Made by a program: the position numbers and the translations under genes. 64,000 nucleotides of DNA from Candidatus Latescibacterota bacterium (lineage in GTDB: Bacteria > Latescibacterota > Latescibacteria > Latescibacterales > Latescibacteraceae). This document shows, one piece after another, positions 2,010 through 44,322 of this stretch. The DNA is taken from assembly GCA_016927495.1 (NCBI GenBank), contig JAFGMP010000009.1, positions 937 through 64,936 of the forward strand, written 5' to 3'. Under the pieces are notes generated by a model, which was not told the DNA's origin, ran no database searches, and saw only the letters and a list, made by a program, of their open reading frames with translations. How positions within the stretch are numbered: the stretch's first letter is position 1; each line of letters begins with the position of its first letter.

Positions 2010-5000
2010 ATGATTATATGTCCTCAAAATATTGATTTCAGTGGATTAGCCGGATTATTATCGTCCCCCAATGTATCATCCGGTTCAACGGATACATCTG
2101 ATTTCGCTGCCCTGATTATGAGTATGCTCGGTGGTGACACAAATCCGGATATAAATATATATCCCGTTTTGACAGAACCTGAAGAAATTTCGGGTATTTC
2201 CACTGAACTTATCTCCGGTATCGACTCAACGCAAACCATTGAAGCCAAATGTGTAATCAGTACAAAAGACGGTAAAAAAATAATTATTCCGGTTATGCTG
2301 TTAAATGCCGAAAATATTGAATTTAGCAATATGATTTACGATGCAATAATTGAATCGGTAAATTCGCAATCCGAAAATACCGATACTCAAATTGCCGCTT
2401 CAGATAGTGGTATTGAAAAAGATACCGAAAATGCACCAATGTTCGCCCGCCCGCTTCAGACATCGTATGTTCCCAATAATGATAATGTGAATTTTGGGAA
2501 TGTGAATATTACCGGAGATAGCCTGACAGAAAAAGCTTCAGCCGTTGTTGATAAAGCAGTGTCCGAACAACCAACGGTATCGACAGAAAAGCTATCGGGT
2601 ACAAATGAGCCTGGCGAAACTGAAACCGTTACAGATACAGAAACACTTTCAGATAATAGCGCTGAAGAAATCGTAAAATCACATACATCGTTCAAAACTG
2701 ATGAGTTTACCGGTTTGCCACAAACCGAAATCGCCGGGCAAAACAAAGAAAATATTACTATCCCTGATAATAAAGAAAGCCAAATTCAGCATATCGAAAC
2801 AGAAGATATACAGGTCCCCGTTGACAGTGTAATTGAGAAGTCCGACAGTATTATCCGAAATTTCAGGTTTTCGGAGATATCGGATGAATCGGTTCTGTCA
2901 AATACGACCGGTGATGAACAATCGACTCAAGTCACTTTGAAAATTATCGGGGCATCGGATGATAATACTTCGACCGATCAAATATTTTATGTCCAAAATA
3001 AAACAGATAATATGAGCACAGAACAAAAAAGAATCAACATAAAGATCAATGGCTTACTTCAGGAAACGACTCAACAGCCGTTATCGATAATCAGGATCAG
3101 CACATCTTCCGGAGAAATACCGATAATATTGAACTTGCCCGATTCTTCCGGCCAAAATATCTCTGCCGCTGATCTGATAAATGATCTGATTACCGCAGGA
3201 GCAGATGTCGAACTGGTTTTGGACACGATCAGGACAAGCGTGAATACCGAAATTTTGCCGGTTGGCAGAAATACCGATGCTGACGGGAATGTACAGCTTT
3301 TCGAGAATAACGGTTTTTCTACAAAAACAAACCGAACCATATTTATTATTCCCGATGCCATAAACCATGATACTGTGCAAACCTCCGGGTTTCAACCAAA
3401 TACCGGAATTATTCGAAATATCTCAGACACACAAGAGATACGCAATACGGATACTGAAAACACTGGTCAACAAATACAGCATAATGAACAGAAAGTTTCG
3501 GATCAGAACGGTTTAATTGTCTCAGCGGGAAAAACAAGTTACTCAGAGGAACAAGTTGATGAGGAAATTTTACATATTGAAAAAGTAACACCTGATGTTA
3601 ATGTTGATAATGTTTCTCAAAATCGGCAATCGGGGGGAGTTGGCGCGGGTTCAAATCCGACCGACGAACAACGCACCTTCACACGCACCCCAGTAAAGCC
3701 CCCCGATGCCGTTATTAAAGCTCCCGAATCCATACCTATATCGGTGGCCGGGGAAACGGAAACGCTAACCGTTGAGAACACAACATCGGAGGTACAATAT
3801 GCTACCGTAGTGAGTGCGAACCAACCCGAAAAGCCTTTGAGTGTAAGTACAATCGCCGATGATAGTACTCGTGAAATATTGGTAAAGGAAAACATATCAA
3901 TTAAAATTTCAAGTACTATCATACCTGAAACATTCCAAAAATCGACCGCGACATTTTCTAAAATCGATAGTATTGAAAAAAACATGGATTCGGACATAAT
4001 ACCTGATAAGTCAACAGGTGAAGAAATTTCGGTTACTGGAAAAAATGATATGCCGGTTACCGATGCTACACCCACTTTTGAAATGTCGGGTAAAGTGACC
4101 GGAACAGTTGTTTCACGGTTCATCCGTACAGGTTCGGAACACAAATTTCTTGAATCGGGCGAGGAGATAAAAGTCAATGAGCAGATTCAAACTTCACCCG
4201 CATCATCAGTTGTTTCTTCCGGTTCAATTGAAAAAAACGCAGATTTCAATACAACGATGGAAGTAAAGAATATAGAAACGGAAACTCTACAGGTTAAACA
4301 TAACGGCGATACTTCGGTTCAGCAGGGAAACCAAAAAATACAATGGAATGAATCTGTTTCATCCGAAAGTTTTGTACGTCCGAATGATAGTGAAGTAAAA
4401 TCCGGATATGAAAAACCTGTAGTGAGTAAGGCAACGGATGGAGAAAATGTACGACCAGTATTTACTGAGAGACAATCGGAAACGGATGCGAAAATATCTG
4501 TCGACAAACCGACTGACAGTATCAAAAAAACAGCTCATCCCTCATTTACTGTGAATACAGACATACCTGAATATACAGAAAAATCCGAACAAACGGAACA
4601 ACATGACACAAACACATTCACTACCGTAAAGGATTCGGTAAAATCCGGAATTTCTGATATAGCGGGAACCGATCCGTCACCGGGAAACACAATTAATATC
4701 ACTGGCAACGATTCCGAGGACAGCGGAATTACATCTCATCAAAAAGATATGAAAACCGAAGGTGATAAGGATGCGACAATACAATCAAAAACATTTAACG
4801 ATGCGCCTTCGGAGTCTGAAGAAATTAATCCGGAACCTGCGAAGAAAAATGATTCTCAGGTTAAGGCAGCGCATATAACGGAACAAAGAAAACATGACAT
4901 GTCTTCATCTCGGCCAGAGAAAATTACGGTTGTATCGGATAATAAATCAGGTACGGTTAATGCGGTAACTCGATCAGTTGAATCTACTTCAGATAGCGAT

Positions 5001-5876
5001 CTTCCTGTAAATTCATTTTCGGTATATAAAACTACCGAACAGATAACTGTAGCACCTGATGTTGATGCCACTTTGAAATATGCAGAGGGGAAATCTCATC
5101 GGATGTATTCCGAGACGGATAGTTCGGGAAAGCCTTTGGTGGTAAATAATATCGAAGGAGATATTGGAAAGGGCCGTCACCGGTACGGGTCCTCTGAAAG
5201 CGAATTGATGAGTGATCAAAACAGGCAGTTCGGCGCTTCAGGATATGCTGGTGAAAATAAAGTCGGCGATATCGAGGATTTTAGTGCGGTACAGAGTAAA
5301 CTGTTTTCGGATTACGGTGAAAGTGATTCCGATAGGTATGCACTGAATGTTGGACAATCAGATTCGGTTTTGAAAGTGGATACACAATTTGGTGGACGTG
5401 GAATTTTCCAAAATAACGATGCCGGGACAATACATGACATCAAAAATGAAGTTTTGAACACAATAGTAAAAAATGCAAAGTTTATGTTCAATAGCGGGCA
5501 GTCAAGTGCTGTAATAAACCTTGAACCACCGAGCCTGGGTAAACTGAAACTGGAAATAATATCCGATAATTTCAGGATAACCGGTAAAATTACGGTGGAA
5601 TCAAATGAAACAAAAGAAATTATTCAAAGCAAATTAATCGAATTGAAAGAGCAGCTTACTCAAAGTGGTCTTAAGGTTGAATCTTTCGATGTGCAACTTG
5701 GGCATAACAGCGGTACTGATTCCTGGGCTAACCGTGAAAAAATTGAAAATCTTACTCAAAATTTAAGACGTAACATTCGGGAAAACGAAAAAATTGAATC
5801 AGAGTATATTTCAGGAATACAGTCGGTAGGAAGAGGAAAGTCCATGGATTCGGGCTATCTCGATATATTGATGTAG
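2010..5876 (+). CDS. fliK: Giant flagellar hook-length control protein FliK (1288 aa) with low-complexity T/S/E/D/N-rich N-terminal region
   Basis: The C-terminal roughly 150 aa (SAVINLEPPSLGKLKLEIISDNFRITGKITVESNETKEIIQSKLIELKEQLTQSGLKVESFDVQL) match the Flg_hook/FliK C-domain. The gene lies between ylxF and flgD. The exact start is uncertain. Confidence 0.8.
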   Translation: MIICPQNIDFSGLAGLLSSPNVSSGSTDTSDFAALIMSMLGGDTNPDINIYPVLTEPEEISGISTELISGIDSTQTIEAKCVISTKDGKKIIIPVMLLNAENIEFSNMIYDAIIESVNSQSENTDTQIAASDSGIEKDTENAPMFARPLQTSYVPNNDNVNFGNVNITGDSLTEKASAVVDKAVSEQPTVSTEKLSGTNEPGETETVTDTETLSDNSAEEIVKSHTSFKTDEFTGLPQTEIAGQNKENITIPDNKESQIQHIETEDIQVPVDSVIEKSDSIIRNFRFSEISDESVLSNTTGDEQSTQVTLKIIGASDDNTSTDQIFYVQNKTDNMSTEQKRINIKINGLLQETTQQPLSIIRISTSSGEIPIILNLPDSSGQNISAADLINDLITAGADVELVLDTIRTSVNTEILPVGRNTDADGNVQLFENNGFSTKTNRTIFIIPDAINHDTVQTSGFQPNTGIIRNISDTQEIRNTDTENTGQQIQHNEQKVSDQNGLIVSAGKTSYSEEQVDEEILHIEKVTPDVNVDNVSQNRQSGGVGAGSNPTDEQRTFTRTPVKPPDAVIKAPESIPISVAGETETLTVENTTSEVQYATVVSANQPEKPLSVSTIADDSTREILVKENISIKISSTIIPETFQKSTATFSKIDSIEKNMDSDIIPDKSTGEEISVTGKNDMPVTDATPTFEMSGKVTGTVVSRFIRTGSEHKFLESGEEIKVNEQIQTSPASSVVSSGSIEKNADFNTTMEVKNIETETLQVKHNGDTSVQQGNQKIQWNESVSSESFVRPNDSEVKSGYEKPVVSKATDGENVRPVFTERQSETDAKISVDKPTDSIKKTAHPSFTVNTDIPEYTEKSEQTEQHDTNTFTTVKDSVKSGISDIAGTDPSPGNTINITGNDSEDSGITSHQKDMKTEGDKDATIQSKTFNDAPSESEEINPEPAKKNDSQVKAAHITEQRKHDMSSSRPEKITVVSDNKSGTVNAVTRSVESTSDSDLPVNSFSVYKTTEQITVAPDVDATLKYAEGKSHRMYSETDSSGKPLVVNNIEGDIGKGRHRYGSSESELMSDQNRQFGASGYAGENKVGDIEDFSAVQSKLFSDYGESDSDRYALNVGQSDSVLKVDTQFGGRGIFQNNDAGTIHDIKNEVLNTIVKNAKFMFNSGQSSAVINLEPPSLGKLKLEIISDNFRITGKITVESNETKEIIQSKLIELKEQLTQSGLKVESFDVQLGHNSGTDSWANREKIENLTQNLRRNIRENEKIESEYISGIQSVGRGKSMDSGYLDILM

Positions 5877-5944: not shown

Positions 5945-6679
5945 ATGGTAAGTGGAATCTCGAACGAAACACAATATTACACTCCGGAAACCTCAGCAAC
6001 ACAAGGTACTATTTGGGGGTCTACCGAAGAAGATGTTGAGACCGCGGCAAGTAAAGATGTATCATCTCTCGGTAAAGATGATTTTCTTAAATTGCTCATT
6101 GCCGAATTACAGAATCAGGATCCCCTGAATCCGGCAGACAATACCGAGTTTATTGCACAGTTGGCCCAATTCAGCTCACTGGAACAGATGACTACAATGA
6201 ACGATAATCTCGAAAAGGTTCTCACATACAATAAGTCTGTTACAGAATCGATCAATAATTCGATGATGGTTAATTTTATCGGTAAAACGGTAACGGCAGT
6301 TTCCGATGAATTTGTATACGATGGACTGAATCCGGTGGAATTGGGTTTCGAGCTTGACCAGGATATATCTCGTGGAACACTTGAGATTTATAACGAAAAT
6401 GAGGTCTTGGTCAAAACGATCTCCCTTGATTCCATGGAAGCCGGTCTTCGAAGCACGGTTTGGGACGGATTTACAGACCTTGGATTACTGGCCGGGGACG
6501 GAATATATACTTATAAAGTTAATTATTATGATATGGTGGAAAATCAGGGGGAAGCAACGACGGTTTTTTCGGGAACAGTCGAAGGCGTATCCTATAAGGA
6601 CGGTATGGCGTATCTTGACATAAACGGTATGCTTGTACCATTTAATGAGATAACACACATAGTTCAGGAAGACGAGTAA
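5945..6679 (+). CDS. flgD: Flagellar hook assembly/capping protein FlgD
   Basis: FlgD N-domain motif ([38 protein letters not shown]) plus a C-terminal FlgD-Ig-like region. A GGAGG RBS precedes it. Confidence 0.9.
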
Positions 6680-6721: not shown

Positions 6722-7105
6722 ATGATTAAAAACCCGAACATAACAGGTTTTATTGGTACCGTTAACAATACCACAGGCCTTACCAAGGTTATCAGAACCG
6801 GTCAGAATACTTCTTTTTCCGATGTTCTGAAATTACAGCTTGAACGTGAATCAGGTATAACGTTCAGCACCCATGCAATGGACCGTATACAGGCACGTGG
6901 AATTCAACTTGGAACCGATGAATTAAACAGGTTGTCACAGGCAATATCAAAGGCAAAGGATAAAGGCGCTACGGATTCACTAATACTGCTTGATGATATG
7001 GCTTTTATAGTGAGTATAAAGAATAAGACAGTTATTACCGCAATGTCAGGAGAAGCGGTAAAAGAAAATGTGTATACGAACATCGACAGCGCCATAGTAA
7101 CATAA
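6722..7105 (+). CDS. Flagellar operon protein (TIGR02530 family) between flgD and flgE
   Basis: 127-aa protein in the conserved flgD-X-flgE position. The family is typical of Firmicutes/Thermotoga-type loci. Assigned on size, position and sequence character. Confidence 0.5.
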   Translation: MIKNPNITGFIGTVNNTTGLTKVIRTGQNTSFSDVLKLQLERESGITFSTHAMDRIQARGIQLGTDELNRLSQAISKAKDKGATDSLILLDDMAFIVSIKNKTVITAMSGEAVKENVYTNIDSAIVT

Positions 7106-16420: not shown

Positions 16421-17488
16421 ATGCCCGACGATACCGGTCAGGAAAAGACAGAACAGGCAACGCAAAAACGCCGTCAGGAAACACGTCGTAAGGGGCAGGT
16501 AGCCCGCTCTGCCGAAGTTAATTCAGCAGTAATGCTTCTTGCCGGTTTTAGTGTAATTTTGATCTTCAGACAGCATATTTTGATGGGTTTTGAGGGATTT
16601 TTCAACGGTATATTCTCACAGTTGAATGTGTATGACCTGAATATCAACAATACAAACGGGATTCTTCTCCGGACGTTATCTTCATTCTTTTCGATATTAT
16701 TTCCGATTTTTATAGTTATGGCGTTAGTGGGAATACTGGTTAACATTTTACAGGTCGGATTTCTGTTCACTGCAGAACCGATTACCCCGAAATTGGAAAA
16801 GATCAATCCTGTCGAGGGATTAAAACGAATCTTCTCACGAAGGTCTTTGGAAACTCTCATACGGGATATAATAAAAATTGTAATTGTTTTATGGATAGGA
16901 TTATCAGCTATCAAAGGGATTATGAATAATATCATGACGGCTGCGGATTCCGGTGTGGGTGATATTTTTGCCTTTACCGGGAACGCTGTTTTTTCCATCG
17001 CTATGAAAATTCTTATCGGATATTTTGTAATTGCAGCGCTGGATTATGCTTTTCAACGCTGGGATTACGAACGTTCCATGATGATGACCAGGCAGGAAAT
17101 TCGGGAGGAGATGAAACAGACCGAGGGTGATCCCCTGCTCAGGGCCCGTGTACGGTCAGTTCAACGTGAACTTTCACGACGTCGTATGATGGAGGCTGTT
17201 CCCAAGGCTGAGGTTGTGATCACAAACCCAACCCATATTGCAGTCGCTCTGTCCTACGGCGCCGGTATGACAGCTCCGGTTGTCGTGGCAAAAGGGAAAA
17301 ACCTGATAGCGGAGAAGATACGTTCCGTAGCAGAAGAAGCCGGTGTTCCGATTGTGGAAAACATATTGCTTGCGCAATCGCTGTATAAAGCTGTCGATAT
17401 AGGTAACCCTATTCCGGCAGAATTATATACCGCAGTTGCCGAGGTTCTTGCATATGTCTATCGCATATCAGGAAAAAAGGTGGTATAA
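16421..17488 (+). CDS. flhB: Flagellar export switch protein FlhB
   Basis: NPTH autocleavage motif (VVITNPTHIAVALSY) and FlhB N-terminus (KTEQATQKRRQETRRKGQVARS). Confidence 0.9.
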   Translation: MPDDTGQEKTEQATQKRRQETRRKGQVARSAEVNSAVMLLAGFSVILIFRQHILMGFEGFFNGIFSQLNVYDLNINNTNGILLRTLSSFFSILFPIFIVMALVGILVNILQVGFLFTAEPITPKLEKINPVEGLKRIFSRRSLETLIRDIIKIVIVLWIGLSAIKGIMNNIMTAADSGVGDIFAFTGNAVFSIAMKILIGYFVIAALDYAFQRWDYERSMMMTRQEIREEMKQTEGDPLLRARVRSVQRELSRRRMMEAVPKAEVVITNPTHIAVALSYGAGMTAPVVVAKGKNLIAEKIRSVAEEAGVPIVENILLAQSLYKAVDIGNPIPAELYTAVAEVLAYVYRISGKKVV

Positions 17489-23248: not shown

Positions 23249-24868
23249 ATGTGTTCTGTGCGAATAAATCCTCAAAAAATTGCCGAAAACCTTATGATAA
23301 AACAAGTTGAAACAAAAACTGTTACAACTGGAGATTCGGCAAATTCTGTCGAAATAAAAAATATTGGTGAGACTTTGTCCGGCCGATTATTGTCGCTGTT
23401 TGACACAAAAGGCGGTAATGTACCTCGCTCGACAATTCTCGACATTGCATCGAAACTTGCGGCTTTGGATATGAAACCCTCTGATGTTGATGGTGATATC
23501 GCGCTGAAAGCGCTTTTGCTACAACATAATAATATTCCCCTGAGTCGGGAGTTACTTCTGGACAGCTTTGAGAGCGATCCGGCGGTTTTCACAAAATTGA
23601 ACACTCTTGTCGATAGTGTACTCACTGCGTTGAGTGATTCGAGAGTAACCGGTGAGATAAGGACAACGCTTGGTATATTCATTAAAAATCTTGACTCATT
23701 ATTCAGGCCTGAGTCGATGCAGGAAGCTGTCCGAAATACTTTGACCGATCATGTATCGGAATGGTCCCGCTCAATTGAGTTGAAAATTCTTTCACTTCTG
23801 TTAAATAATCCTGAAGCAATTCGAGCCGCACCGATGGAACATGTATCCTCTGCCGAAGTGATGCTTATGCTCTCGGATGCTGCGCAGAAAAATCCTCAGA
23901 TAGACGTATTGATGGAAAAGCTTGGTGACATAACCGGTAAATTATTATCACGGTTATATGAACTCAATCCGGGAACTGATGAATTTAATGTCGGTATCAG
24001 ACAGGCAGTTGCCGTATTATCCAAACATCTGACGGATCTTATCCCGGATATTAACGCAATTTTACAAAACTCGGGTAATCCGATCCTTTCTGATGATGTT
24101 TTAGCCGTTTTTTTCAGTGAACACATACAGTTATTGGAGGAAAAACTGCTCAGCGCACTTGAATCCGTATCTTCGAAAAGCGTGATGAGTGGATCAGTAA
24201 TACGGAGTGAGGTAAATATACCGTTGCACAAAATGTTGAGAAACAGCGGTATGTCGTTTGAATGGCAATTACTGGCATGGTATCGTTCGGGTAAAAATCC
24301 GGAAAGACTTCGCGAGCTTATGCAGCGTGATATTAAGGGCATTCTCGATAAGTTTATGACCGATCTGAACTTATATAGAAAAAAAAGCTCCGGCAAAAGT
24401 ATATTAAAAAACCTCGAACGTGAAGCAAAATCTGTGCTTGACTGTATTACTCAGCGTCAGATTTCCAATATTCTGCAGGATCGTGGAACCGGTGGGAAAG
24501 TATATTTCGAACTGCCGCTCGGCAATCTCCGCGATAAAGATAATGCACGGGTAACTGCAGAAGGTGGTCAAAAATCAGAAGAAAATGGGTTAAATCCGGA
24601 AAATTTCAATCTTTCGTTCGATGTCGAGACTACCGGACTGGGACGATTGTATGTTACTATGAATGTACAGAAAAAAAACATTTCACTCGAGTTTTTAGTG
24701 AGGGATGATAATGTTATCACTCAGGCGCATACAATTGAACATGAGCTTGTCGACTCATTGTTTTCACGGGGATTTTCCGTTAATTCGTTAAGTTTTGATG
24801 TAATCAGAGATAACATCGCGTTCAATAAGAATAAATCGAATAGACGCAGTATGGATATAAAGGGATGA
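23249..24868 (+). CDS. Second FliK-like protein (Flg_hook C-terminal domain)
   Basis: The C-terminus (NFNLSFDVETTGLGRLYVTMNVQKKNISLEFLVRDDNVITQAHTIEHELVDSLFSRGFSV) resembles the FliK/Flg_hook domain. It is paired with an FlhB-CTD-like gene, as in Firmicutes FliK-like/YlqH pairs. The start is uncertain, possibly MIKQVETK at 23294. Confidence 0.55.
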   Translation: MCSVRINPQKIAENLMIKQVETKTVTTGDSANSVEIKNIGETLSGRLLSLFDTKGGNVPRSTILDIASKLAALDMKPSDVDGDIALKALLLQHNNIPLSRELLLDSFESDPAVFTKLNTLVDSVLTALSDSRVTGEIRTTLGIFIKNLDSLFRPESMQEAVRNTLTDHVSEWSRSIELKILSLLLNNPEAIRAAPMEHVSSAEVMLMLSDAAQKNPQIDVLMEKLGDITGKLLSRLYELNPGTDEFNVGIRQAVAVLSKHLTDLIPDINAILQNSGNPILSDDVLAVFFSEHIQLLEEKLLSALESVSSKSVMSGSVIRSEVNIPLHKMLRNSGMSFEWQLLAWYRSGKNPERLRELMQRDIKGILDKFMTDLNLYRKKSSGKSILKNLEREAKSVLDCITQRQISNILQDRGTGGKVYFELPLGNLRDKDNARVTAEGGQKSEENGLNPENFNLSFDVETTGLGRLYVTMNVQKKNISLEFLVRDDNVITQAHTIEHELVDSLFSRGFSVNSLSFDVIRDNIAFNKNKSNRRSMDIKG

Positions 24869-39971: not shown

Positions 39972-40793
39972 ATGAGTTTAAGAATTAATCATAATATTTC
40001 AGCGATGAATACTCATCGCCAATTGCTTCAGACAGACAGGAAGCTGTCTAACTCGCTCGAAAGGTTATCGAGTGGTTTAAGAATTAACCGTGCGGCAGAT
40101 GACAGTGCCGGTCTTGCAATCTCACAAAGGCTGAGATCGCAGGTTGAAGGTCTTCAGATGGCATCGCAGAATGCCGAACAGGCAAAAAATGTTGTACAGA
40201 CTGCCGAAGGTTATCTTAACGAAATTCACAATATGCTCGGCCGTATGCGTGAGCTGGCAGTTCAGTCTTCATCCGATACCGTCGACAATACAAACCGTGC
40301 ATCTCTGCATGCAGAGTTTTCTTCTCTTCGTGAAGAAATCACGCGTATTGCCAACGCTGCGGAGTACAATAACCAAAAACTGCTCGATGGCTCATTTAAC
40401 GGCACATTTCAGATCGGCGCCAACAACACAACGAATGATGTGATATCATTCACTATCGCAGGTGTGGATGATTCAACTCTTTCAATCGATGCTTCCGACA
40501 TCTCAACCCGTGCCGGCGCAAATACCGCTCTTGACGAATTAACGGCGGCAATTGATGCTGTTTCCACTACCCGTTCCGATTTGGGTACAATTCAGAACAG
40601 GTTGGCATTTACCGTGGCAAGTGTTGACAATGCTTCGGAAAACCTTGCAAGTTCAGAGTCGACAATTAGAGACCTTGATATCTCTAACGAGGTCACTGAG
40701 TTCACAAAATCTCAGATTCTGACTCAGGCCGGTATGTCGATGTTGGCACAGGCAAATGCAGTGCCTCAGAATGTGCTTGCACTCTTCAGGTAA
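39972..40793 (+). CDS. fliC: Flagellin (minimal, 273 aa, D0/D1 only)
   Basis: N-terminus MSLRINHNISAMNTHRQLLQTDRKLSNSLERLSSGLRINRAADDSAGLAISQRL and C-terminus TQAGMSMLAQANAVPQNVLALFR are flagellin N/C domains. Confidence 0.95.
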   Translation: MSLRINHNISAMNTHRQLLQTDRKLSNSLERLSSGLRINRAADDSAGLAISQRLRSQVEGLQMASQNAEQAKNVVQTAEGYLNEIHNMLGRMRELAVQSSSDTVDNTNRASLHAEFSSLREEITRIANAAEYNNQKLLDGSFNGTFQIGANNTTNDVISFTIAGVDDSTLSIDASDISTRAGANTALDELTAAIDAVSTTRSDLGTIQNRLAFTVASVDNASENLASSESTIRDLDISNEVTEFTKSQILTQAGMSMLAQANAVPQNVLALFR

Positions 40794-41307: not shown

Positions 41308-44300
41308 ATGGCGAGTACAGGATCAATAAGTTTTGGCGGTTTGGCGAGTGGTTTGGACACAACCCAACTCATTGAAAATCTGATGACGGTTGAATCAAAG
41401 CCCTTAACCAGGCTTGAGAATAAGAAAACGGAACTCGACAGCCAGTATGATACCTATACTACCATGAAGTCGAACCTTAATGAACTAAAAACGCTTGTAT
41501 CCGCGCTTAAAAGTTCGGATACCTTTGGAGTTTTCAGTGCCTCTTCTTCCGATGAAGAGGCACTGACACTCAGTGCTTCAACCTCGGCAAATGAGGGTAC
41601 TTATTCAATTAAAATCCTATCATTGGCTCAGGCTGAAACATTGTCAAGTAACTCATATGCATATACTGAAAACAATCTTAATCTGACAGGCGAAATTCTT
41701 ATAAACGGCAACAGTTTCAGTGTTAGCAGTACCGACTCGTTGATTGATATTCGAAATGGTATTAATGCTTTGGATGCCGGTGTTACGGCGAACATTCTGA
41801 AAGTTTCAAATGGCGACAACCGGCTTATTATATCCTCAGATACTGCGGGTGAAGAAGGTATTTTTATAGCGAATGTCGGCAGTACCGACATTCTTGGTAA
41901 TTTAGGCTTTACAGACGGTACGAAAAGTATACGCGAGTTTTCGAACGGGAGTGTTCTGTCTGCTTCATTTGAGTCTTCTACGGCAACCGTAGGCAGTCTT
42001 TTCGATATCTCGTCCGGTGTTTCCGGTAATGTTGCCATCAGGGATGAATCACTGAGTATCGATCTATCCAAAGACACGTTAAATTCCATCCGTGACAAAA
42101 TCAACAATCTTGGCCTTACCGGTGTAACCGCATCGATAGAATCCCAAACGGAAAATAACGCCACCACCTATCGCCTTGCAATTACAGGAACGGAAGATTT
42201 TACCGACGATAATAATATTCTTGAGACACTCGGTATTTTTGAGGGGGGAAGAAGTGGTATAAGCAAGACGGTTGAGACCGGAGTCTTGTATTCTAATAAT
42301 AGCGAAAATAGTGTAAAATATGCAGACAGCAATACACATTTAAGTCAATTGGGAGCAGAAGTTCAGGGGGGAGAAACCGAGACAATTACCATATCCGGTA
42401 CTAATCTTGATGGTTCGGCCGTTTCCAAAACGATCGAAATTTCATCAAATACAAATATCGATGATATTCTTACCGGTATTGAAGAAGCGTATTCAGGTAA
42501 TGTGACGGCGTCGATTGAAAATGGGAAGATACAGGTGAAGAGCAATGAAACCGGGTCATCTTCGCTTGAATTCAGAATTTTTGCACATAATGAAAATGGA
42601 GGCACACTCGATTTCGGTACAATCAGTACGACCGCAAATGGACGTGAACGATTATTAGCTGAAGGTGGGAATGCGCGAATACTGGTGAATAACATTGAGG
42701 TATCGAGAGACTCGAATGAAGTTAACGATGTGCTTACAGGCCTCAATTTAACCCTGAAAAAGGCTGATCAGGATACTACCTTAAGTATTACGGTGGAACG
42801 CAATACCGACGAAATCAAAGATAAAATTCAGGAATTTATTACTGTTTACAATGAGTTTATCGATTTCGTCGATGAGAATTCACAATATAACGAGGAAGAA
42901 AATGTAGCCGGACCTCTTCTCGGTGATCTGACAACAAGAAGCATTCTTTCCCGGATCAGGGAATCGTTACGGACAAGTGTTTTTGGCGATGATTTGAGTT
43001 ATAATCAACTTGTCCAGATAGGTATAGAGTCGACAGCAGATGGAAAACTGGAACTCGACACCGCAAAACTTATGGATGCAATGGATGAGAATGTGGATTC
43101 AGTAGTTTCTTTATTCTCAGCCACACGTAAGTCGAGTGATAATGACATCTCATTTGTCTATCATTCCGAAAAGACAAAATCGGGCACATACGCTGTAACC
43201 ATTACGCAGGCAGCAGAGCAGGCTGAAGTTATTTCGGATGTTTCACAGGAAGATATTCAATCGGGTACTCTGAAAATAACAGATAACTTTGGATATACTA
43301 TTGAGTTTGGTTATGATTCCGGCATGACGTTTGATGATATTGCAAATGCACTTGCTGTCGAGGCTCAGACTTCTTATAGCGAGATTTTAAGGTCGGATAC
43401 GGGACTATCGCAATCTGCCAATCAGGATCCGGTCACCCAGAATACGGCAATAAGCGAAATAGCCGGTGTTCAAATTAATGAAAACGATACGATTACCATA
43501 AACGGAACAAGCCGAAGCGGTAAAGAATATCAGAGAATCATATCACTTGGCGGAAGTGAAAATGTCACGATGCAGGATATTCTGGATGCGGTAGAAGCTA
43601 TAGCAGATAATGAAGTCAATGCCACAATCGACACCGGAGGCAAAATACTGATCGAAGATACACAGACCGGAACAAACAAATTCTCATTTTCTATCGAAAC
43701 TACTGTGGAAGGTCTGGATTTCGGTACAATTTCTTCGATACAAAAAGGCCGGAACCGTGTAAATATTGAGGCTTCTGTGACCGAAAATAACCGCTTGAGA
43801 ATAAATCATTCATCTTATGGCTCCAACAACACCCTGACAATTTCTGGAGGCAGCGGACTGGGTCTCGCAGATGGTGAATATGCCGGAGTTGATGTTGCCG
43901 GGACGATTAACGGTGTCACCGGTACCGGCAGCGGCCAGTCACTGAGCGCTTCAGCCAGCGATACGAATGCAAGAGGCATTGTAATAAGAACTAAAATTAC
44001 GCCTGAAGAACTCGCATTCGAGGGGCCGTCCCAGGGAACGATAACGTTAATATCGGGGATTGCCGATTTACTGTACAGCGATCTCAATGCCATAACTAAT
44101 CCGGTTGACGGATTCATTCAGGCGAAAATTGACAGTGTTGAGCTTTCGCGGGAAAGTGTCGCAACTCAAATAGATAATACAACAGCTCGTCTCGACCAAA
44201 GACGTCAGATGTATGTCAAAAAATTCACTGAACTCGAACGTGCCATGGCAAGCCTTGAATCGATGCAGCAAAGTTTATCGGCATCTCTTAGCGCACTGCC

Positions 44301-44322
44301 ATCAGCCAGTTTATTTTCTTAA
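41308..44322 (+). CDS. fliD: Flagellar filament cap protein FliD (HAP2), unusually long (1004 aa)
   Basis: N-terminal FliD_N (ISFGGLASGLDTTQLIENLMTVESKPLTRLENKKTELDSQYDTYTTM) and C-terminal FliD_C (DGFIQAKIDSVELSRESVATQIDNTTARLDQRRQMYVKKFTELERAMASLESMQQ). A roughly 600-aa central insertion lies between them. Confidence 0.9.
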   Translation: MASTGSISFGGLASGLDTTQLIENLMTVESKPLTRLENKKTELDSQYDTYTTMKSNLNELKTLVSALKSSDTFGVFSASSSDEEALTLSASTSANEGTYSIKILSLAQAETLSSNSYAYTENNLNLTGEILINGNSFSVSSTDSLIDIRNGINALDAGVTANILKVSNGDNRLIISSDTAGEEGIFIANVGSTDILGNLGFTDGTKSIREFSNGSVLSASFESSTATVGSLFDISSGVSGNVAIRDESLSIDLSKDTLNSIRDKINNLGLTGVTASIESQTENNATTYRLAITGTEDFTDDNNILETLGIFEGGRSGISKTVETGVLYSNNSENSVKYADSNTHLSQLGAEVQGGETETITISGTNLDGSAVSKTIEISSNTNIDDILTGIEEAYSGNVTASIENGKIQVKSNETGSSSLEFRIFAHNENGGTLDFGTISTTANGRERLLAEGGNARILVNNIEVSRDSNEVNDVLTGLNLTLKKADQDTTLSITVERNTDEIKDKIQEFITVYNEFIDFVDENSQYNEEENVAGPLLGDLTTRSILSRIRESLRTSVFGDDLSYNQLVQIGIESTADGKLELDTAKLMDAMDENVDSVVSLFSATRKSSDNDISFVYHSEKTKSGTYAVTITQAAEQAEVISDVSQEDIQSGTLKITDNFGYTIEFGYDSGMTFDDIANALAVEAQTSYSEILRSDTGLSQSANQDPVTQNTAISEIAGVQINENDTITINGTSRSGKEYQRIISLGGSENVTMQDILDAVEAIADNEVNATIDTGGKILIEDTQTGTNKFSFSIETTVEGLDFGTISSIQKGRNRVNIEASVTENNRLRINHSSYGSNNTLTISGGSGLGLADGEYAGVDVAGTINGVTGTGSGQSLSASASDTNARGIVIRTKITPEELAFEGPSQGTITLISGIADLLYSDLNAITNPVDGFIQAKIDSVELSRESVATQIDNTTARLDQRRQMYVKKFTELERAMASLESMQQSLSASLSALPSASLFS

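Follow-up and report, generated by a model that had tools for sequence, protein, structure and literature searches.

A clade-wide, three-fold enlarged FliK with conserved islands in Candidatus Latescibacterota

Introduction

A 64,000-nucleotide (nt) stretch of DNA from a Candidatus Latescibacterota bacterium (GenBank assembly GCA_016927495.1, contig JAFGMP010000009.1, positions 937 to 64,936 of the forward strand; this whole stretch is referred to below as the window) encodes, among other flagellar proteins, a FliK of 1288 amino acids (aa). We report here that the gene, at 2010-5876, encodes a bona fide single FliK, neither a fusion nor an assembly error, and that its three-fold enlargement is a clade-wide trait whose identified carriers are Candidatus Latescibacterota. 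The identity of the protein as a FliK is ordinary; what is new is the enlargement across a clade together with a defined internal architecture. We cautiously favour the reading that the protein is a greatly lengthened ruler or terminator tape that would raise the ceiling on hook length.

FliK is the textbook molecular ruler, and whether it works as a physical ruler or as an infrequent terminator is still argued. The data come nearly all from one 405-aa protein and its engineered variants of up to 785 aa. The clade described here supplies natural FliKs of up to 1479 aa, with drifting spacers, a kept length and a few kept landmarks, and a near-constant neighbouring hook protein. Our literature searches turned up neither an account of giant FliKs nor one of the hook dimensions of Latescibacteria; in the 2015 Latescibacteria genome paper, the presence of flagellar genes is all that is noted.

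A single gene encodes the 1288-aa FliK

The gene and the parts of its product are as follows, with residue numbers of the protein, matches to hidden Markov models (HMMs) and, where given, the predicted local distance difference test (pLDDT) of AlphaFold models.

2010-5876, + strand: fliK open reading frame (ORF), ATG start, 1288 aa and stop codon, from the ORF list and translation
2010-2324, + strand: Island A, aa 1-105, conserved N-terminal module; its HMM matches the N-terminus of 20 related proteins
2325-3083, + strand: Spacer 1, aa 106-358, non-conserved and predicted disordered; no tile matches a relative; pLDDT <50
3084-3221, + strand: Island B, aa 359-404, conserved beta-beta-alpha-beta element; HMM matches in 13 proteins
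3222-3614, + strand: Spacer 2, aa 405-535, non-conserved and predicted disordered
3615-3731, + strand: Island C, aa 536-574, motif 'GG.g..S......TP....PP.A.I'; HMM matches in the 5 closest full-length relatives
3732-5402, + strand: Spacer 3, aa 575-1131, longest acidic, S/T-rich, predicted disordered stretch; pLDDT <50
5403-5873, + strand: C-terminal FliK switch (T3S4/Flg_hook) domain and tail, aa 1132-1288; Pfam core aa 1155-1234, nt 5472-5711

The whole protein lies in one uninterrupted, ATG-initiated ORF, and its residue 1 already aligns with the N-terminus of the orthologue on the related locus L001. A search inside fliK for start codons preceded by a strong Shine-Dalgarno sequence found none, and the four longest antisense ORFs within it match no family. 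An independent Logan assembly (run SRR13394437) carries the identical 1288-aa protein with the gene order unchanged. A preliminary description of this DNA had proposed a giant FliK of this length, with the reservations that it might be two genes joined by an assembly error and that close relatives might carry a FliK of normal length. The proposal stands, as a genuine single gene: the start-codon search and the second assembly give no sign of a fusion, and the same position in close relatives is occupied by giants of 844-1479 aa.

The opposing explanation, that two genes were fused through a frameshift or misassembly or that the ORF is a pseudogene, draws on the appearance of database relatives as short C-terminal proteins of 114-531 aa, and on the spurious antisense ORFs that gene callers put in the fliK region of L001. 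Examined in context, however, the short 'FliK' proteins among the close matches are fragments. They lie on the error-prone long-read contigs L009 and L010, where fliK is called as several adjacent same-strand pieces (on L009 every flagellar gene is called likewise), beside the scaffold gap of L001, or, for the other short close matches, on contigs of 0.7-1.8 kb. The L001 protein amounts to ~1370 aa overall, as a 1107-aa ORF and a C-terminal piece with nothing between them but a 100-N scaffold gap, which a repeat flanks. Moreover, the N-terminal module and the C-terminal domain are found in one uninterrupted ORF in more than 19 independent sequences, which include metagenome-assembled genomes (MAGs) and at least one single-cell genome. 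Together with the identical sequence in the second assembly, this effectively refutes an artefact and excludes it for practical purposes. For annotation, it means that a short 'FliK' call in one of these lineages is usually a fragment, and that gene callers also set spurious antisense ORFs within the FliK spacer.

The C-terminus identifies the protein. Its sole Pfam domain is Flg_hook/FliK (PF02120; aa 1155-1234, E 3.5e-17, 62.4 bits with a gathering score of 29.8). A search of the PDB with the single C-terminal sequence gave no match and a profile was required; the clade profile A3 matches Salmonella FliK-C (PDB 2RRL) at E 1e-5. In the AlphaFold2 model the C-terminal domain is folded over aa 1139-1260 at pLDDT 70-89, and Foldseek with this model returns 2RRL (E 4.8e-5) and the PscP SS domain (5CUK; template modelling (TM) score 0.72, root-mean-square deviation 2.5 Å). 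Conservation across the clade includes the '..LD.W.' at the very end of the protein, and with the clade profile no second Flg_hook match was found in the window. An injectisome SctP/YscP identity was considered and rejected: the T3S4 fold is shared (5CUK), yet every neighbouring gene is flagellar. Besides the switch domain, other features of the FliK family are present: the flagellar context, an N-terminal part that is predicted to be disordered, and an FlhB partner that carries NPTH. At 1288 aa it lies outside the typical size of ~350-700 aa, which is a descriptive and not a defining feature.

Enlarged FliKs across the clade

A scan of one genome per species with a C-terminal-domain profile yielded three close loci, each with an uninterrupted FliK: 1378 aa in a Candidatus Latescibacterota MAG (L003, contig CAXXSC010000003.1), 1108 aa in the Latescibacterota single-cell genome AM-311-I19 (L004) and 996 aa in an uncultured MAG (L005). 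Two further loci of the same synteny also carry uninterrupted FliKs, of 1479 aa (L012, GCA_964400815.1) and 875 aa (L013, GCA_000398625.1).

A word search with the whole protein was swamped by words of biased composition and gave the self-match only, and C-terminal queries were used instead. Because a profile search with 32 C-terminal domains recovered short fragments and no giants, the length census rests on an exhaustive HMMER search of the last 288 aa of FliK against 1.84 billion cluster representatives, which produced 4494 hits. Among the listed matches of at least 95 bits, 30 of the 49 are at least 840 aa long and 26 at least 1000 aa, the longest single-domain protein among them having 1479 aa. 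The 77 weakest listed matches (<62 bits) have a median of 521 aa, and none of the 77 reaches 1000 aa. Syntenic giant orthologues, of 844-1479 aa, are found in ~30 protein clusters. Their pre-domain regions are longer than those of ordinary FliKs (median 1002 aa against 368 aa), contain more S, T and V and less K, L and Q, and are more acidic, with a net charge per 100 aa of -7.8 as opposed to -4.1. A more distant relative (P0056) has the clade's Island A and the same synteny at a length of 576 aa, so the expansion is not universal at the edge of the clade.

Several of the relatives carry duplications within the spacer. P0010 has a recent tandem duplication of ~32 aa; in L001 (9787-9885) the peptide 'PDPDLKPDKVS' stands on either side of the 100-N scaffold gap; and the spacer of L005 (7451-10441) contains a TES run, TELTELTESTESTES... 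These duplications suggest a route by which length changes, as well as a reason why assemblies break there. A different, odd route to a giant FliK-like protein is seen in the unrelated P0009 (1638 aa), in which a P/A/T-rich repetitive N-terminal half is followed by ~11 tandem Flg_hook/T3S4 domains.

Composition and internal architecture

The region ahead of the switch domain had been described beforehand as T/S/E/D/N/I-rich, of low complexity and loosely repetitive. The composition is as stated (S 11.8, T 9.7, I 9.1, E 8.6, D 7.3 and N 7.2% of the protein, with a net charge of -92), and the other two terms do not hold. Just 2.0% of FliK residues fall in 12-residue windows with an entropy of at most 2.2 bits, fewer than in FlgE (4.1%) or FlhA (15.5%) in the same window. 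Neither Tandem Repeats Finder (TRF), direct-repeat searches, Smith-Waterman comparison nor tiled HMMs revealed repeats above shuffled controls. TRF reported one marginal 22-nt array in fliK, at the lowest score setting only, and the direct-repeat search found short two- and three-copy matches of the kind expected by chance. The best Smith-Waterman score between 100-aa segments was 54, as against 50.5 +/- 5.3 for block-shuffled controls, and iterated HMMs from 80-aa tiles of FliK found no second copy within the protein. A recurring 'T.DG..I.IPV' hairpin was also sought with a hand-made regular expression, which proved too strict, missing even the copy in the window, and was dropped.

Disorder prediction sets the protein apart from its neighbours, FoldIndex being below zero in 59% of 51-aa windows of FliK and in 4-5% of those of FlgE and FlhA. 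AlphaFold2 was run twice, on aa 89-1288 and on aa 1-450, with alignments of 31 and 19 sequences made up of the window fragment and orthologues. In the first model 1026 of 1200 residues have a pLDDT below 50 and no secondary structure, with the C-terminal domain folding in the same job; in the second, 379 of 450 residues are below 50. The ~1130-aa N-terminal region is better described as compositionally biased, acidic, S/T/I/V-rich and, on these predictions, mostly disordered.

Within this region, iterated HMM searches seeded from the window FliK define the three islands. Island A is modelled with helices at aa 10-17 and 30-39 and a beta-hairpin at aa 76-98 (pLDDT 70-85), and FoldIndex is +0.27 for aa 1-100. 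It probably carries the export signal, to which its presence at the N-terminus of 20 relatives points indirectly, and a hook/cap contact region. Island B is modelled as strands and one helix over aa 359-406 at pLDDT 55-75, more weakly in the aa 1-450 run. The idea that the islands are degenerate copies of the T3S4 domain found no support in hhalign with the C-terminal profile, where the probability was 0.4% for Island A, 5% for Island B and 0.1% for Island C.

The distances between these landmarks are retained. In each of the 11 proteins whose N-terminus is complete, Island B starts at residue 314-361; Islands B and C are 107-132 aa apart in all five proteins that have both, and 502-558 aa separate Island C from the C-terminal domain in the four proteins where this is measurable. 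The sequence between the islands has no detectable similarity even to that of L001, whose FliI is 86% and whose FliK C-terminus is 57% identical to the window's. Spacer 3 can be aligned only with the closest relative available, the 531-aa fragment P0008. Here the switch domain is 74-86% identical and the ~350 aa before it 24-46% identical, and those ~350 aa contain five indels, all of 1-3 aa apart from one of 26 aa. Free sequence with retained length and landmarks is as expected of a spacer or tape. Islands B and C might, speculatively, serve as additional contact or pause sites.

Comparison with known systems

The FliK of Salmonella enterica (405 aa) consists of FliK-N (1-207), which contains the export signal and is the part that binds FlgD and FlgE, a linker (208-267) that together with FliK-N forms the ruler, and FliK-C (268-405; PDB 2RRL), which binds FlhB-C and flips export specificity (PMC6972891). 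The window protein shares with it the C-terminal T3S4/Flg_hook domain and disordered tail, a largely unstructured pre-domain region, a gene beside flgD and flgE, and an FlhB with NPTH. It differs in a pre-domain region of ~1130 rather than ~267 aa, in having no detectable similarity outside the switch domain, in a spacer that is S/T/I/V-rich, acidic and predicted non-helical, and in its three clade-specific islands.

Engineered Salmonella FliKs of up to 785 aa, made with helical inserts from YscP (Spoering et al. 2018, PMC6126814), likewise have a tape that has been lengthened between N-terminal signal and switch domain; they continue to be secreted and to control hook length, which is 135 nm at 785 aa (PMC6126814). 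Compared with these, the lengthening in the clade arose naturally, extends to 1.6-1.9 times that size (1288-1479 aa), is predicted to be non-helical and is fixed across the clade.

Ordinary FliKs have ~490 aa in Spirochaetaceae and 588 aa in Pirellula, with most database matches at 430-700 aa. The C-terminal domain is common to them, at 31-39% identity, and Islands A to C are missing, apart from the 576-aa P0056, which has Island A. In the Spirochaetaceae loci (L007, L008), flgD and flgE again lie next to fliK; in the Pirellula locus (L006), fliI and fliJ were the only such neighbours seen.

Among injectisome rulers, YscP changes in length during evolution through internal duplication, and the spacer duplications of L001, L005 and P0010 are comparable to this. 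YscP, PscP and SctP share the T3S4 fold with the window protein (5CUK, TM 0.72). Unlike them, it has a flagellar context and a Pfam Flg_hook domain, and its best sequence match is FliK-C (2RRL).

A proposed lengthened tape and the length of the hook

In Salmonella, hooks stay controlled with engineered FliKs of 363-785 aa and measure 42-135 nm, each added residue contributing 0.2 nm (PMC6126814); a later preprint argues that FliK sets the maximal rather than the minimal hook length (Guse et al., 10.1101/2020.03.25.007062). We propose a model for the enlarged protein in which, as in other flagella, the secreted FliK would stop the hook from growing by changing which substrates the flagellar type III apparatus exports. 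By analogy with Salmonella, it would be exported intermittently as an early substrate during hook growth, and Island A, possibly with Islands B and C, would contact the FlgD cap and the FlgE channel. The C-terminal domain would linger at FlhB only once rod and hook were long enough to stretch or pause the chain, and this prolonged contact would flip export to filament-type substrates. The pre-domain region has grown from the usual ~370 to ~1130 residues. Relative to Salmonella the tape may be about four times longer, and a much longer tape would mean a much higher ceiling on hook length.

If the Salmonella relationship is extrapolated linearly, the ceiling would be 55 + 0.2 x (1288 - 405) = ~232 nm for the window protein, ~143-270 nm for the 844-1479-aa orthologues and ~89 nm for the 576-aa relative. 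The enlarged FliK thus predicts, and does not prove, unusually long hooks. A bolder version seems to us doubtful: that Latescibacterota hooks of ~150-270 nm, as opposed to the 55-nm paradigm, are measured by a ~1000-aa acidic, disordered 'graduated' ruler with docking islands at fixed distances, matched to a thick hook of 700-aa FlgE and a 1004-aa FliD cap.

A number of points weigh against a hook-lengthening tape. FliK varies 2.6-fold (576 and 844-1479 aa) while FlgE (699-723 aa) and FlgD are nearly invariant, which weakens the case for a strict proportional ruler; such a ruler would also imply roughly three-fold different hooks in close kin. The value of 0.2 nm per aa comes from alpha-helical inserts in Salmonella (PMC6126814), whereas the spacer is poor in L, K and Q and predicted non-helical, and the Salmonella factor may therefore not carry over. 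A non-helical chain, as predicted here, could reach further per residue, and a spacer that is compact, or that plays no part in the measurement, could contribute much less. Salmonella hooks beyond the wild-type length impair swimming (PMC6126814). The low pLDDT of the spacer may partly reflect an uninformative alignment, and as such is weaker evidence than it appears. The window also contains a second, sub-threshold Flg_hook-like ORF of 539 aa (23249-24868, + strand). Finally, the claim of long hooks extrapolates from Salmonella to uncultured organisms.

The main rival to a hook-lengthening tape is a tolerated expansion of the spacer without proportional lengthening of the hook, which we regard as possible and rather unlikely. 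It holds that FliK is functional and that its spacer has ballooned by duplication and drift under relaxed constraint, any length above a minimum being tolerated; hook length would be set mainly by FlgE supply, secretion kinetics and contacts of the N-terminal module. The wide range of FliK lengths beside near-constant FlgE and FlgD speaks for it, as do the unconstrained spacer sequence and the fresh tandem duplications in P0010, L001 and L005, and Guse et al. see FliK as a terminator, not a strict physical ruler (10.1101/2020.03.25.007062). Free drift in length is, however, difficult to square with a close clade that has no complete member below 844 aa, P0056 (576 aa) excepted, with the spacing retained in the nearest subclade (Island B start at 314-361, B to C 107-132, C to the domain 502-558), or with so few indels relative to P0008 despite 24-46% identity. 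Moreover, longer Salmonella FliKs do lengthen controlled hooks, up to 785 aa (PMC6126814).

An added function, in which the extra ~750 residues give the secreted FliK a second role outside the cell (adhesion to particles, matrix or a glycosylated, mucin-like coat) or bind extra flagellar parts such as the enlarged FlgE and the 1004-aa FliD, is in our view improbable. Islands B and C do lie within the extension and have no counterpart in ordinary FliKs, but they are missing from about half of the giant orthologues. The chain is acidic and S/T-rich, and the other axial proteins of the locus are enlarged too; more than 85% of the extension is nevertheless unconserved in sequence. A Pfam search of the first 1097 aa of FliK is empty even at E<=1, and AlphaFold shows no globular domain there, just the hairpin and a ~45-aa element, so that neither method gave any sign of an extra enzymatic or adhesive domain in the N-terminal region.

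Returning to the proposed tape, imaging of these cells would open a mechanistic question of long standing to a test, thanks to the size of the protein, its conserved spacing and the natural series of lengths. Should the long-hook reading be true, the 576-1479-aa series with its near-constant FlgE would be a ready-made test of physical-ruler against growth-terminator models. If hook length tracks FliK length, the ruler rule would extend three-fold past the tested range, and an uncultured phylum would have an unusual flagellar joint; if it does not, the clade would provide strong natural evidence for the terminator view.

Gene neighbourhood and further observations

The genes around fliK that bear on the above are:

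21-587: fliI, truncated by the window edge
584-1030: fliJ
1399-2001, + strand: flbB/ylxF-like gene, 200 aa, directly upstream of fliK; weak FlbB and MgtE_N matches
5945-6679, + strand: flgD (hook cap), 244 aa; Pfam FlgD, FlgD_ig and FlgD_tudor
6722-7105: 'flg_new' gene, TIGR02530
7163-9289, + strand: flgE (hook protein), 708 aa; Pfam and NCBIfam FlgE matches
16421-17488, + strand: flhB, 355 aa; NPTH autocleavage motif at residue 269, from translation and motif search

The order in the window is fliI-fliJ-flbB-like-fliK-flgD-flg_new-flgE, followed by flbD, motA, motB, fliL, fliM, fliN, fliO, fliP, fliQ and fliR. The same order recurs in L001, L003, L004, L005, L009, L012 and L013, and neighbouring genes in the relatives' loci are 42-86% identical to the window's. 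The flbB-like gene is 42-73% identical in L001, L003, L004, L005 and L009 and always lies just upstream of fliK; flgD is syntenic in all relatives, and their FlgE proteins (699-723 aa) are 63-70% identical to that of the window. The position of flhB is consistent with the gene order in L002. From what is known of other FliKs, FlgD would be the contact partner of the FliK N-terminus and FlhB the target of its C-terminal domain. The P-ring protein FlgI is encoded in the window, which presumably points to an external flagellum crossing an outer membrane.

The neighbours named in the preliminary description are real, with FlgE at 708 aa, FliD at 1004 aa and the flagellin at 273 aa. FlgE is ~300 aa larger than Salmonella-type hook proteins, in the window and in all relatives, and the epsilonproteobacterial FlgE model TIGR02489 aligns to its C-terminal half with a score below cut-off. 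Extra FlgE domains have been described as confined to Epsilonproteobacteria (Matsunami et al. 2016), and this lineage may be a second case. FliD (41308-44322, + strand) has NCBIfam FliD matches that are all below cut-offs and align as N- and C-terminal pieces flanking a long insert. The minimal flagellin gene (39972-40793, + strand) adjoins it.

The 539-aa ORF at 23249-24868 directly follows flhF, flhG and fliA and is mostly helical. Pfam Flg_hook aligns to its aa 448-519 at E 5.7e-4 and 20.1 bits, with the cut-off at 29.8. As a FliK it received an hhalign probability of 1%, neither a broad FliK HMM nor NCBIfam confirmed it, and no relatives of it turned up in the metagenome scan. It may be a second, very divergent T3S4-like protein, as an unconfirmed candidate.

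Two relatives have non-flagellar genes in the otherwise conserved operon: in L012 a DUF362 gene (3494-4942) separates fliJ from the flbB-like gene, and in L001 a FlgD_ig/Por_Secre_tail gene (2700-3614, - strand) lies between fliH and fliI. No Rfam family was found anywhere in the window. A 368-nt gap (1031-1398) separates fliJ from the flbB-like gene, with comparable gaps in relatives; it coincides with the lowest G+C of the first 12 kb (0.33 at 1001-1500) and may be an internal promoter or regulatory region.

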